64,000 bases of DNA from Massalongia carnosa (GCA_965645245.1 OZ287067.1:434001-498000), one strand, 5' to 3'; counted from the stretch's first letter, positions 13,447 through 26,573 are shown. Notes: generated from the sequence alone by a model not told the origin. Numbers and translations: made by a program.

Positions 13447-14319
13447 GGACAGTCCCCCGACCGTCCCCCCCCCTGTGTAAATCTTTGCTAGTAAACAGCC
13501 ATTTCACTGCTTATCCAGGGTGCGTACAAGCTAGTAATGCAACTGCCAACAGCACATTAAACTCTTTTCGGTTTAAATCGTATGACGTGTTATTGCTACT
13601 AATAATTACCCTATGTCACGGTGCGAGGTCAGGTAGAAATTCAGATGGTGCAAACGTATTACTTGATTGTCTAGCTAGGTGGACAAGACGTTCGACAAGG
13701 AGAAAAGAAACAGAAAATCCAAACGTGGGCGAGTATAAGACTCTGGCGAACGGAACTAGTCCCAATCCAGCCGTTGATCTAATTTCCCCCAAGTCCCTGG
13801 CATGAAACTATCGCCATGACACTATTGACGGTCGGAACACTACCTTTGCCCTGACTAAACCGGATTAACTACCTTAAGGGCGGTTGGGGGTATTCGGACA
13901 TGGTCTTGAGATGGTCTCAAGATATTATCCACTAGAACGTTCTTGTCTTAGTCTATCTACATAGTGATTACGTCAGTCAAGAAAGCAAATAGTGTTCAGA
14001 TATTTTGTTTTCAAGACAATCTCGTGACTTTGTTATATGTAAGATATCTTATGACGTGGAATGCATGTTTCTAACAACATCATCTCAGGACGATCTTCGT
14101 TTGAAGAATTTCATCAGATTAGCTCAAGATTCTTTGAATCAGGAGTGCTTTGAAACAGTGTGATATTTGGTTGACAAGATTTCAAGTTTCAGTTTGTGTT
14201 AGAGCCAAGTGCAAGCAAAACATTTTCTTCGGTCAAGCTATGAGAAGCTAAATAGGATTGCACCAACAACTTCAAGCAAAACATCTTTTCTTCATACCAG
14301 TACAAAAAAAGCAAAGCGT

Positions 14320-15239
14320 TCACGAGCTAAACTGATCCTCGTCTTCGTTCTCGGCCTCGGTGACCTCCATCTCATCCATGATGGTACCAAATTCCTCCGT
14401 CTCTGGTTTGTCTGATGATTCCTTTCTCAGACGTTTTGTCCGAGCTGGTTTCAATTTGAAATGGTGTGGCTTGATGTTTTGGTATTTCGCCATTTGGGGA
14501 AACGTATCATAGAACTCTAGCAGGGAGGTTCGATCTGTCCCTTCTGCTCTGGGGGCATCCAAGAACAACTTCGTCTTCACCGCTAAATTAAGAAAAAACA
14601 CTTGTTTCATATCAGTATGTAAATATCATCAGTTCTCCCATGCCTTGTCACGTACCTTTAATCCAATAGGGTCCTCGAGGCATTACGCCCTTTTTTGAAG
14701 ACTCATGAAACATCAAATCTTTTGCAGCCCATGGAAAAACAGTTTCAGCATCGTGAGGATCGTATTGCTGTGCAAAAGCTTTGAATAATCTGCTCGAGTC
14801 ATGCTCGGATCCCAGCAGCCCTAGGTTGTCTCTCCTCATCGCAGACTTCACATAGTCCTAACAAAATTCAGAAGTCGAGTATAAACGCTAATAGCAAGCT
14901 ACATACTTCCATACAGGTCAGAGAGCGATGTTTCCACGTTGAAACGTTGGACTGCGCTTTGGTGAGTCCTTTCCTGAAATATATATCTTCGTCATCCACA
15001 TTTTCCTTGATTGCAGTACGTGCGATATGCGCTATCTGATCTGCGTCCAACTTGCCATAACGAAGCGCAAATGGCCGCAAAGCAGCCTCCAATCGCATCG
15101 CTATCATTTTCCATTCCGACGTAATGGCGTGTCTTCTCCGCCTCTTTTTTGTTGATATTTCTGCCGCTATTGGCCCTGATTCTATCTCGGATTGTGTCGT
15201 AGGTTCAAGGACTTCTTCATTTGAGGATGATATATTCAT
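14320..15239 (-). CDS. Transposon-borne hypothetical protein, 3 exons (~260 aa), basic NLS-like KKRRRR, acidic C-terminus
   Basis: Three ORF pieces joined by canonical introns (GTATGT at 14906, GTACGT at ~14656). Divergent from the transposase. Confidence 0.6.
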
Positions 15240-22600: not shown

Positions 22601-24648
22601 ATACAGAATCGAAGCTTTGTTGCTCACTCAAGATGTGCAGCTTATTGCAAAAAATTATCACTACATGGACGGACGAGCTAATAATGATTCGCCGCTCCAC
22701 TGCCTCCATCCTAAAGATCAATGATCATGAAACTGTTTCTATGCGCTCCATGATCCCAAGCCACGAAGTTAGAACCGTTGACTCACTTATCAAGAAGAAG
22801 AAGCAGCGGAGTCCCAATGGGTACATAGAGCTCACGCTCGGTTAGCTTATTCTTCATATCGATATGAATCTGAGAAGCAAATAAAAGCTAATGTATGAAT
22901 GCAGGGAATTTGTTCAAGCCATAAAAGATTGGAAGGGCAAGAAGACGGAGAAGCCACAAATTACAGCTATCAAGAAAGCTGGAGCCGATAATTTCCCACA
23001 CATCATAGCACCATTACGACATTTAACTCTCGCCAGTGCCTCCCTTCTTCTCAGTAGACTCGACCGCATGCTTCGAAAAATAGGCCATAACACCTTGGTC
23101 AACGATATCAACCGATTTCGAGCAAAAGGCGTGACTGCTGATCATATCATTAATCTTGTGAAACGAGAAGGAGACTCTGATGTTACTACTGGTTCGGAAA
23201 AACTCAAATTTCTGACCTACGGTTCTCCCACCATGAAGTCCATACTATATCAAATTCATACTTATGTATTACCTCATATCGTTACGGACAAGCCACGGAA
23301 GCTATTGATTACAGAAGATGTACCACTCAACGCCTTTTTCTGGGATAGCGTGTGTAATTTTACATACGTGGAGACCGAAGTGTTACACGCTGGATTGACG
23401 GATTTAGAGCGCGTGGATCTTGTTAAAAGATTCAGTGATCCTAAAGATTCCTTACTGATTTTGATAATAATGTATCAGGTGTCGGCACAAGGAGTAAATC
23501 TGGATAGATGTTGTTGTCGGGTTTTAGTGGCAACGCCAGCAATCAATGCACCGTCAGAAATTCAAGCTTGGTCTCGAGTAATCCGGGTATGTTATCTGAA
23601 AAGAGCGTGACCTTTCTTCGTACCGATACGAAAGTCTAATCGTTGCAATTTCATGCAGGTTTCTCAAACCGAACCCGTGTTGGTTGTTCGAGTTGTAACA
23701 AAGAATTCTCATGATCAATATCGAGACTCCAAGCAAATAGATAAGGCCGTGGTGGACTTAGCCACTCGATCCTTCTCGTCAGAGGTGCAGAACCTACTAG
23801 TTGACTTGTTAAATGAGTCAAACAAATACGTAAAAGAGGCACACGAGAGTCAGAGAGGACACGAGATTCTGAAGGAAAAGAATTTTCTTCCCACAGAGGA
23901 TTCAAATAACTCGATGAATGTCGAGTTTGACGAGGAGACCGGCGGTAGATTAGCTATCACGGTGCAAGATCCATTGGATCTTGATCTCGATACAGTCACG
24001 AATCCTACACCCCGAAAACGTCTGAGACCTGACAGATTCGCGGATACAATGCTGCAAGATGATGTTTATCAAGAGTATGGTCAAGGTAAGCGCCGTAAGT
24101 TGAAGGGCAAAGCATCCATGAATGAAGATGTGGACGAAGAATTTTCAGATCAGTTTGAGGAAGACTCGTCATTTAAGGACAGTGAGAACGAAGAGGAGAA
24201 CGATGATGAGGAATCCGAGGTGACATCGGATGATAGTGATGATGCTTTTCAAAGTGATGGAGACGGAGATGAGATAACTGCCTTGAAAGATACTGTTTTG
24301 GAGACGACAACGACCAAGAAGTTGAGACAAAATTACAGCAAACTAACTTCCATCGAGCAGGAGCAATACAATCAAGATGAAATGAACTTACGATACTTGT
24401 TGAGCTTGTCACCGACAAGAATCTACACTGTCGAGGACTTGGACGACATCGAAGTACTTGATCGAGCGTTGAGGCTGCTCTTTCATGCTCGGTTCGGTCA
24501 AGATCAGCAATATATGAGGATTAGTCCTCACGTCACTTACGATAAATTACCAAGCAAAGTGTCGAATGCCATCAAAGCTAAATTACGGGTGGAGGAACAA
24601 CATGTCAAGCAATGTTTGAGCATACTCAATGCTGCTGGAGTTTTGTAA
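19691..24648 (+). pseudogene. SNF2/SWI2-family ATPase-helicase (transposon cargo), multi-exon, apparent frameshifts at ~22670 and ~22780
   Basis: Motif I GGVVVDTMGFGKT, Ia LCIAPSG.VLHQWQEEI, II LLDEGHKLR, III WFLTATPVIN, C-lobe SAQGVNL and EIQAWSRVIRVSQ. Acidic C-terminal tail. Confidence 0.85.
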
Positions 24649-26573
24649 GAGTTCTTCCCATTCTGCTGACGATGATGATGCAACTACAGCTAACAGACGA
24701 TAGAGAACCTAGAGTCATGCCAAAGCAGGCTTTATTGGAGAAGGCCGTTTCCGAGAAGGACGCCTCCGAGAAGGACGCCCCCGAGAAGGCAGTCTTAGAA
24801 GTCTCCTCTGGAATCTCCTCAGGCGAGAAGGGTTTGTCAGGTCAGAACAGCTGAGTTTTGCTGACACTCTCCATCATAAATTTAGTGATTGATCTCTCGC
24901 ATTCAAACTTGTATGAAAGGACCGAGACTAATTTATTTGTTGCGTTAGGCTACCCTATCTTCTACATAGGCACTTGGTACGTTATGTTCTCTGTGCATAT
25001 TGCAATTCAAGCTAACAGTCTTATTCTTCAGATCCTCAAGGCACGTCTCTTGTCTGCCTTGTTTCATCAGTTTCATACATGTTGTGAGAGGAGGTACGGG
25101 AAGGACTCGATGGAGTGATTCAAGACTAGATCGTGCGAGACAGCAACGAGAACGAGAAACATAGCATGAGGATGATAGCATTCATAGAGCTGTAGATTAG
25201 AAGCTGTCACTAAATCAATAACTTGTTTCTCTAACCATCAACTGGGCGAATACATCATGTGAACCCGAATACAACTCAGCTGTAACGAGGTTGCATGAAC
25301 GTGATATCTCTTTTATAAGATTGTTTTCTGATCGTTTTATCCGGAACACGATCTTGAAGGTCTTGAGATCTTGCCAAAACTGAGACGATCTCCAAATCAT
25401 TGCCAGATGCTTTTTTACTGCAAGTACTGTTCATACCAATATGAATGTTCACTAAGATATATCCTTTTCAAGACTATAATATTTTCAAAATGATTTCAGA
25501 CTCTATTATCCGCAGATATTTCTCATCAGACACAAGCAGAATTTTAAGCTATCTTACACGTGCAGGACAATGTTGAGTCATCTCAATCAGGAAAGCGCTC
25601 AAAAAAACATTCAAACCGGGAACCTGCCGGTGTACCCATTTTAGCGAAGACATGTCCGGGATCTTGAGACCATTCCATGACCATGTCCGAAAACCCCCAA
25701 CCGCCCTTAAGGTACGTGACAGACAGGTGCGGGGCACGTGACGGGTCTGATGCTCTAGGCGGAGTGTCGGATGACAGTCCTTACTTAATGCCCGACTGGC
25801 GATAAAGGCTCGACGGCTGCTTCTGATTGATTTCCTGATTGAAATTAAGTTTAACTTTTTCGACTCGATCAATCGATTAATGTTTTATTTACACTGCTAA
25901 GATTGCCTTAAACCATTCAATGAATTAATTGATTGATTTGATAAAATAATTGACAGGTGTCTAGTCACTTCATGACGCTCCTGTAATTATTTAGTTGTGA
26001 TCAATAATAAGACCAGAAATAAACCTAGTCGTCTATGTTAACTATTTAACTTACTCGCTTTTGTATTGTAAGTACTTCGTAACAGGTCATCAAAATGTGA
26101 TTGAACCCAGGAATATCTACCTACTCTGGTGTCTGCTGAGCTGGAAAAGGAGGTCTTGTATTTAATGCTGTATTAATAGAATGCGCGATTTGGTAATCGA
26201 TACGGCGTACGAAATAATCTACGACGAATCGAGATTGAGGCTCCATGCTAGTTAAGTTGTAGTCTGTCGAAGCTTGAAGAGTGTGAGTGCGCTGTACAAG
26301 AAAGATATCTTCTTTCATGCACTATTCTCATATTCTCAGAATCCTTCCCTCTCAGTACGCGTGTTCTCGTAGAGCGTACAGCGTACACGATCGTTTCATG
26401 TTATTTATCAGATCAAATGAGTGGTAAAATATTCGTCTTGCTTGTTTGAAGTCTCTTCGAACCGCTTACGTTGATCAGGAATACGAAGCGTCGAACTTGA
26501 TGAATTACCGTCGCTATATGTCTCTTGTCAAAATCACGATGACAATCCTAGTGACTAAGATGACCGTGTCACA

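Follow-up and report, generated by a model that had tools for sequence, protein, structure and literature searches.

The question raised by positions 13,872 to 25,712 of a 64,000-nucleotide stretch of Massalongia carnosa DNA (GCA_965645245.1, OZ287067.1:434001-498000; this whole stretch is referred to below as the window) is whether a DNA transposon can have made an ATPase of the SNF2 family a lasting part of its own gene content. Our answer is a qualified yes. In the reading that explains the data best, to which we give a probability of roughly 0.7, the segment is an inactivated copy of a multi-copy cut-and-paste transposon of a lichen-associated ascomycete, which encodes a transposase of the CMCT clade (EnSpm/Mirage/Chapaev/Transib/Plavaka) together with its own SNF2 ATPase, acquired in one sub-lineage.

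The element is delimited by terminal inverted repeats (TIRs). An inverted-repeat search recovered arms at 13870-13923 and 25661-25714 (54 nt, 93% complementary, with TA outermost), which form by far the longest inverted pair within 12000-28000, and blastn of the TIRs aligned 13872-13923 with 25661-25712 over 52 nt at 92.3% identity. Each end, read from the outside, consists of TA followed by CCTTAAGGGCGG. The first 20 bases of the TIR, CCTTAAGGGCGGTTGGGGGT, occur exactly twice in the window when up to three mismatches are allowed (0.02 occurrences expected by chance), and blastn detected no further recurrence of any piece of the element elsewhere in the window; the left TIR additionally contains an internal palindrome, TCTTGAGA..TCTCAAGA. 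Enclosed by the TIRs are three coding regions, namely a small open reading frame (ORF), a transposase of about 1,200 codons and a five-exon gene of about 1,600 codons for an SNF2-family ATPase. This confirms the TIR-bounded DNA transposon with these three genes that had been proposed in a preliminary description of the locus. The features are as follows.

13870..13871, no strand: TA adjoining the left end, a probable target-site duplication (part of the inverted match, with its mirror TA at 25713-25714)
13872..13923, plus strand: left TIR, which begins CCTTAAGGGCGG (inverted-repeat search, blastn, 20-mer count)
14871..15365, minus strand: small ORF of 165 residues with a KKRRRR patch (ORF reading and protein cluster search)
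15595..19229, plus strand: transposase gene, about 1,211 codons if read through (frames, homologues, paralogous gene models, AlphaFold, Foldseek)
19691..24648, plus strand: SNF2-family ATPase gene (Pfam, homologue alignment, intron reading)
19691-22321, 22377 to about 22552, about 22608 to 22840, 22905-23586 and 23659-24648, plus strand: exons of the SNF2 gene (homologue alignment and DNA reading)
22322-22376, 22841-22904 and 23587-23658, plus strand: GT..AG introns of the SNF2 gene (DNA reading)
25661..25712, minus strand: right TIR (inverted-repeat search, blastn, 20-mer count)
25713..25714, no strand: TA adjoining the right end, a probable target-site duplication (inverted match and starts of flank contigs)

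In the case of the transposase, the reading frame runs from 15825 to 18698 and continues in the same frame past a TAG to 19229, while paralogous gene models extend it upstream to 15595. Homologues of 1,151-1,283 residues, including one from Lasallia pustulata, share 53-59% identity, and more distant ones (28-37% identity) were found in Morchella, Coccidioides, Colletotrichum and Zymoseptoria; a profile search recovered no relatives in prokaryote genome contigs or in viral contigs. The protein of the window matched no Pfam family. Among 29 aligned relatives the only Pfam family to appear was Plavaka (PF18759), in 6 of the 29 at E<=0.01, and its gathering cut-off (26.3 bits) was reached by no member of the set, the best score being 26.2 bits. 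Plavaka likewise accounted for 13 of the 30 named neighbours in the ESM Atlas, and Transposase_21 for 3. Conservation in the aligned relatives is pronounced (P0001 numbering): D420, C523 and C526 are kept in 29/29, D504 and E603 in 28/29, and D598 and H601 again in 29/29; the motif H543-x3-H547 is present in the window transposase, with H543 kept in 11/29 and H547 in 26/29. On the basis of conservation and motif context, D420, D504, C523-x2-C526 and E603 are candidate catalytic residues.

An AlphaFold model of the transposase core (window 16902-18524, built on the 29-sequence alignment) reached a mean predicted local distance difference test score (pLDDT) of 75.5 and a predicted template modelling score (pTM) of 0.73. 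All 44 of its Foldseek matches in the PDB at E<=0.001 were to RAG1 or to BbRAGL, the RAG1-like protein of amphioxus (best 6e-7), with HzTransib at E 0.07, and a comparison of the transposase profile with PDB sequences returned nothing other than a chance match (AhpD at E 1.2). Taken together, the near-matches to Plavaka, the conserved D-D-C(2)C-E pattern and the exclusive structural resemblance to RAG1 argue that the protein is a divergent DDE transposase of the CMCT clade with a predicted RAG1-like core. Judged by sequence, Plavaka is the nearest named family, even though its threshold was not reached and its terminal motifs are not shared. The likeness to Plavaka and CACTA transposases that had been noticed at the outset is thereby borne out by the Plavaka and Transposase_21 neighbours, the conserved DDE residues and the predicted core. 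The transposase is not of the piggyBac type, as there is no piggyBac Pfam match and the predicted fold resembles RAG1.

The SNF2 gene starts at the ATG at 19691, within an open frame that spans 19616-22339, and a fourth intron probably lies near 22553-22607. The SNF2-rel_dom domain (PF00176) was recognized at 66.4 bits against a cut-off of 24.9, and the translation contains a Walker A motif, GFGKT, as well as DEGH. The Helicase_C lobe of the window piece scored 19.8 bits against a cut-off of 23.5; among the full-length homologues P0034 (27.4) and P0119 (28.1) pass and P0026, P0098 and P0054 fail. These full-length homologues (1,458-2,330 residues) can be aligned to about 24640, passing through window frames 2, 3 and 1 in turn. 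The protein is divergent and has a long insert between the two lobes, and its best solved relatives by sequence are Rad5, ISWI, Snf2 and Chd1, at 1e-9 to 1e-6. Its N-terminal part of about 620 residues is conserved across the family and was assigned to no known family. The model of this module (pLDDT 77.5, with high confidence up to residue 400) yielded no PDB match at Foldseek E<=0.001; VIA-align gave middling PB1/ubiquitin-like matches for residues 243-371 (Z <=6.3) and coiled-coil matches for residues 520-573, residues 1-240 being barely covered, and ESM Atlas scores did not exceed 0.80. The family is broad: its cluster representatives number 821 at E<=0.001, of which 138 reach 1e-30 or lower, and fragments are numerous among them. 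Leotiomycetes, Dothideomycetes and lichen fungi contain full-length members, and a profile search found no relatives in viral contigs. In one homologue from a metagenome-assembled genome of Blastenia crenularia (P0025, 2,330 residues), the part shared with the window SNF2 is preceded by an OTT_1508-like deaminase domain (residues 321-391), an arrangement that could stem from a fusion or from the merging of gene models. That P0025 would be a fusion of transposase and SNF2 was considered and rejected.

The state of the window copy could be assessed by comparing positions 13520-27500 with the Logan contigs of four public runs (X1, X2, X3 and X5), in which the contig consensus stands for the common form of the element and not for any single, fully intact copy. 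At 15673 the window has T where all other contigs have C, which creates a stop at 15673-15675 in the transposase; after 15822 it lacks one base, an A in all other contigs, with a frameshift that joins frames 1 and 3; and at 18698 it has G where all others have T, so that 18696-18698 reads TAG instead of TAT, in line with the gene models of other copies (P0007, P0193 and P0194), which read through this position. In the SNF2 gene, the window carries 4 extra bases near 22667 that are absent from all other contigs and lacks, after 22781, a G that all others have, and each of these changes shifts the frame; once the two are undone, the frame continues through the segment that can be aligned with homologues. 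The in-frame stops at 22843-45 and 23608-10 are intronic, because they lie within GT..AG introns. Through these lesions, which are private to it, the window copy is dead in both genes. The two SNF2 frameshifts had been anticipated, whereas the single stop first reported for the transposase has become at least three lesions (two stops and one frameshift). A signature of repeat-induced point mutation is absent, with TpA/ApT at 0.62 and (CpA+TpG)/(ApC+GpT) at 1.33, values similar to those of the flanks.

The same contigs indicate that the element is one of many. Summed contig depth over 13987-25661 was about 10-30x that of the right flank (26129-27500) in all four runs (in X1, 270-680 in the element versus 30 in the right flank), although summed contig depth is not equal to copy number, and the fall in depth occurs within the bin beginning at the right TIR. 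Joints that bridge internal deletions were found at 14339>25265 (one run), 19741>22788 (four runs) and 21587>23766 (two runs), and suggest that derivatives of the element with internal deletions exist, one of which would be shorter than 1 kb. At the protein level, fragments 88-99% identical to the transposase or the SNF2 protein lie on ENA contigs of 13 different sizes (1.27-3.77 Mb), for which a common assembly has not been established, and matches of 100% lie on the window's own contig (1,685,442 nt). The private lesions, the excess depth and the paralogous fragments agree with the initial view of the locus as a recently inactivated copy and place it in a multi-copy family.

The association of the two genes is not confined to this copy. 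Gene model P0021, of another copy, splices transposase sequence (18540-18728) to SNF2 sequence (20132-21457), and transposase and SNF2 are therefore neighbours there as well. In other organisms, pieces of both proteins were found under identical contig sizes: a size of 12,345 nt (ENA) unites P0027, which covers the SNF2 N-terminal region at 42% identity, with the transposase P0004 (59%), whose cluster includes the Lasallia pustulata protein, and the sizes of 10,339 nt and 25,045 nt (NCBI and JGI) carry P0215 and P0226 (SNF2 N-terminal, 47-49%) and P0032 and P0224 (ATPase domain, 67%) as well as the transposases P0182 and P0005 (57%). Two of the contigs with pieces of both genes are about the size of the element. 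From this we infer that two further organisms carry SNF2 and transposase in linkage, which, along with P0021, favours linkage to the element over the lone host gene that had initially been put forward as the outcome to be feared. As both genes have been kept down to protein identities of 42-67%, a divergence that neutral DNA would not survive, the arrangement points to selection. The linkage does have a limit in the direction of more distant relatives: a SNF2 homologue was found at 0 of the 51 metagenome loci of transposase relatives with 27-50% identity, and at 0 of the 8 informative ones, that is, those with at least 2.5 kb of downstream sequence. SNF2 thus does not belong to the transposase family as a whole but is cargo restricted to one lineage and conserved there; the history that fits best is one in which one branch of the transposase acquired it once and then co-inherited it for a long time under selection.

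One of the distant relatives deserves a description of its own. At 294-9733 of metagenome contig L048 lies a 9.4-kb element with 51-nt TIRs (88% complementary), TA outermost and a transposase 27% identical to that of the window. It has no SNF2 gene, and no recognizable accessory domain was seen in it or in the other long relatives, L002 and L020.

If the element is indeed a CMCT-type transposon with its own ATPase, the transposase would bind the 52-nt TIRs, excise the element and reinsert it, most likely at TA. The ATPase gene, directly downstream of the transposase, would have been acquired in one sub-lineage and kept through deep divergence, and its product might be a DNA translocase or remodeller working on behalf of the element. 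Such a protein could open the chromatin at donor or target, strip the transposase complex, bias the repair of the donor gap or counter silencing by the host. Only tentatively do we go further and suggest that in a RAG1-like sub-lineage of lichen-forming and related ascomycetes, distinct from the Entons discussed below and characterized by CCTTAAGG termini and a TA target, the SNF2 protein with its unique 620-residue module (in the model, a helical domain plus a PB1/ubiquitin-like beta-grasp) is part of the transposition machinery. Were this true, the transposon would encode its own remodeller or translocase, and excision, the capture of a target or the evasion of silencing would depend on it. 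Second enzymes are rarely kept by cut-and-paste transposons, the documented fungal cases being the TET/JBP oxygenases, and with a SNF2 motor retained next to a RAG1-like transposase the problem of chromatin access or escape would have been solved in another way. A family with many near-intact copies in one genome also constitutes a system in which a transposon-borne remodeller can be tested, and it extends the clade that gave rise to RAG1 by a branch in ascomycetes whose termini are unusual.

Relatives outside this genome are confined to two of the three ORFs, the transposase and SNF2. When the small ORF was compared with 5.8 billion clusters, restricted to proteins of 92-294 residues, 5 matches were obtained, i.e. 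the window's own P0227 (100%) and four ENA copies at 77-86% identity, two of which keep the same C-terminal end, and no relative beyond this genome. The preliminary description had seen here a three-exon orphan with a KKRRRR patch; a lineage-restricted ORF with this patch stands at 14871-15365, in a minus-strand open frame spanning 14868-15374, while the further exons at 14320-14857 were not confirmed. In the same ENA source, fragments of transposase and SNF2 reach 88-99% identity, against 77-86% for the copies of the small ORF. In sequence terms, this lower identity hints at a second subfamily or at faster evolution of the small ORF.

The context of the element is fungal, as witnessed by genes for Cdc37, Med20 and GH47 in the window and by the ascomycete relatives of the element's proteins. 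Just to the left of the element, at 12311-13441, lie 29 head-to-tail copies of a G+C-rich 39-bp unit (96% matches), an array that is open in several frames on both strands and shows no clear Pfam family. A fragment of a long-terminal-repeat-type retroelement, with reverse transcriptase and aspartyl protease domains, occupies 160-1593 on the minus strand.

Two aspects of this interpretation, the exact ends and the role of the ATPase, invite a different reading. The termini are CCTTAAGG..CCTTAAGG, i.e. CC..GG, and because CCTTAAGG is palindromic, TA, TTAA and longer symmetric cuts can all be read as the duplication. The ends could thus be GGGCGG..CCGCCC with TTAA, or a different symmetric cut of CCTTAAGG, as the duplication, in which case a target preference would account for the outer CC/GG and TA; in the palindromic TACCTTAAGG..CCTTAAGGTA, TTAA, CTTAAG or CCTTAAGG would each serve as a direct repeat at both ends. 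We consider this improbable. The inverted match reaches out to the TA, and the single-copy right-flank contigs begin at 25685 (X2 and X3) or 25686 (X1); if Logan contigs are built from 31-letter words, these starts imply that at least one other copy shares the sequence through 25714, i.e. past TTAA. Furthermore, TA likewise flanks both arms of the L048 relative on the outside, the transposase of the window does not resemble that of piggyBac, and for the related ESTA and PlavakaA elements duplications of TA and of 2 bp, respectively, have been published (PMC12730594). The sequence evidence thus leans towards TA as the target duplication, without proving it. As for the ATPase, it might be a mere passenger, that is, a captured host gene without a role in transposition or in escape from silencing. 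The lack of SNF2 at the eight informative distant loci fits such an origin, as do the derivatives missing part of SNF2 that are present in all four runs and the full-length homologues with the same N-terminal region in several ascomycete classes, which may be host genes. We nevertheless hold it unlikely: a useless gene should have decayed over the divergence at which it is found beside the transposase, in the same architecture and at 42-67% protein identity, in two further organisms, and here no splice site is damaged and most copies retain an open frame at both places where the window copy is broken.

In addition to the caution on depth and the absence of SNF2 from the distant loci, several observations weigh against our interpretation of the element as a whole. 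The ends and the target-site duplication are read from one flanked copy plus the indirect evidence of contig starts. To the left, the flanking DNA (about 13614-13868) belongs to a repeat with more copies than the element, with a contig depth about 10-20x that of the element in three of the four runs (about 5x in X5). Because this repeat continues past 13868 into different sequence elsewhere, and because the right flank is not its continuation, the empty site could not be rebuilt, and no joint spanning the whole element was found among the contig joints listed. The CC..GG termini depart from the CA..TG that is usual in the CMCT clade (PMC12730594). The linkage of SNF2 and transposase in other organisms is drawn from equal contig size and source, an exact proxy rather than sequence; the SNF2 homologues of Pseudogymnoascus, Diplodia, Didymosphaeria, Elasticomyces and Phyllosticta may be ordinary host genes; and what the ATPase does for the element is a role that we infer.

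The remaining alternative concerns novelty rather than anatomy, namely that the element is simply a member of Kapitonov's Enton group and possibly already in Repbase. Fungal Entons and Intons, derived from En/Spm and IS3EU (PMC3520738), have been named as carriers of an SNF2 helicase (PMC3627910); the name Enton goes back to a meeting talk by Kapitonov in 2012 and appears in Bao & Jurka 2013. The preliminary description, which was largely right on the anatomy, was therefore wrong in recalling no precedent for a family with SNF2 cargo. As far as Entons are described, all three of their traits recur here, namely a fungal host, an En/Spm-type transposase and an SNF2 helicase as a non-transposase protein. 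Entons are said to have five to six conserved proteins, whereas the present element has three ORFs, only two of which have relatives outside this genome; and in the searched literature, with Repbase outside the comparison, no Enton sequence and no description of an Enton, an Inton or another SNF2-bearing fungal transposon was found beyond the naming in PMC3627910 and PMC3520738. Plain membership is for these reasons a serious but minority option: the element is a CMCT-clade fungal transposon with an accessory enzyme that fits the Enton outline except in gene number, and it may be an Enton.

Among the better-described families, Plavaka (PF18759; PlavakaA and PlavakaB, Kojima 2025, PMC12730594) resembles the element in being fungal and large, in carrying accessory genes and in a (here probable) short target-site duplication, of 2-3 bp in Plavaka, and differs from it in its termini (TGT..ACA or CATCA..TGATG versus CCTTAAGG) and its cargo (TET/JBP versus SNF2). 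With ESTA the element shares the (here probable) TA duplication, a transposase that resembles RAG1 in structure-based comparison, in ESTA detected as RAG1 matches by HHpred (PMC12730594), and a large size with accessory genes, ESTA elements measuring 7-14 kb; ESTA differs in its CACCAC or CACGGC termini, its basidiomycete hosts and its TET/JBP cargo, with no helicase or SNF2 terms in the supplement of the ESTA paper. For the CMCT clade in general, termini of 5'-CA..TG-3' are reported in most cases, along with target-site duplications of 2-5 bp (PMC12730594). RAG1 and Transib are approached by the predicted core, which is closest to RAG1 in all 44 Foldseek matches, and by the D, D, C-x2-C, E pattern; the distance remains considerable, however, with an identity of 9-13%, TM-scores of 0.3-0.46, the HzTransib match at E 0.07, a much shorter D-to-E spacing (99 residues) and no RAG2-like partner. 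In a wider sense, the element joins the transposons that encode an enzyme able to act on DNA or chromatin beside the transposase, such as the TET/JBP of KDZ, Plavaka and others, the three accessory genes of the red-algal Plavaka and the VANC of VANDAL, with the difference that the accessory enzyme here is an ATP-driven SNF2 translocase instead of a base-modifying oxygenase or methylase.

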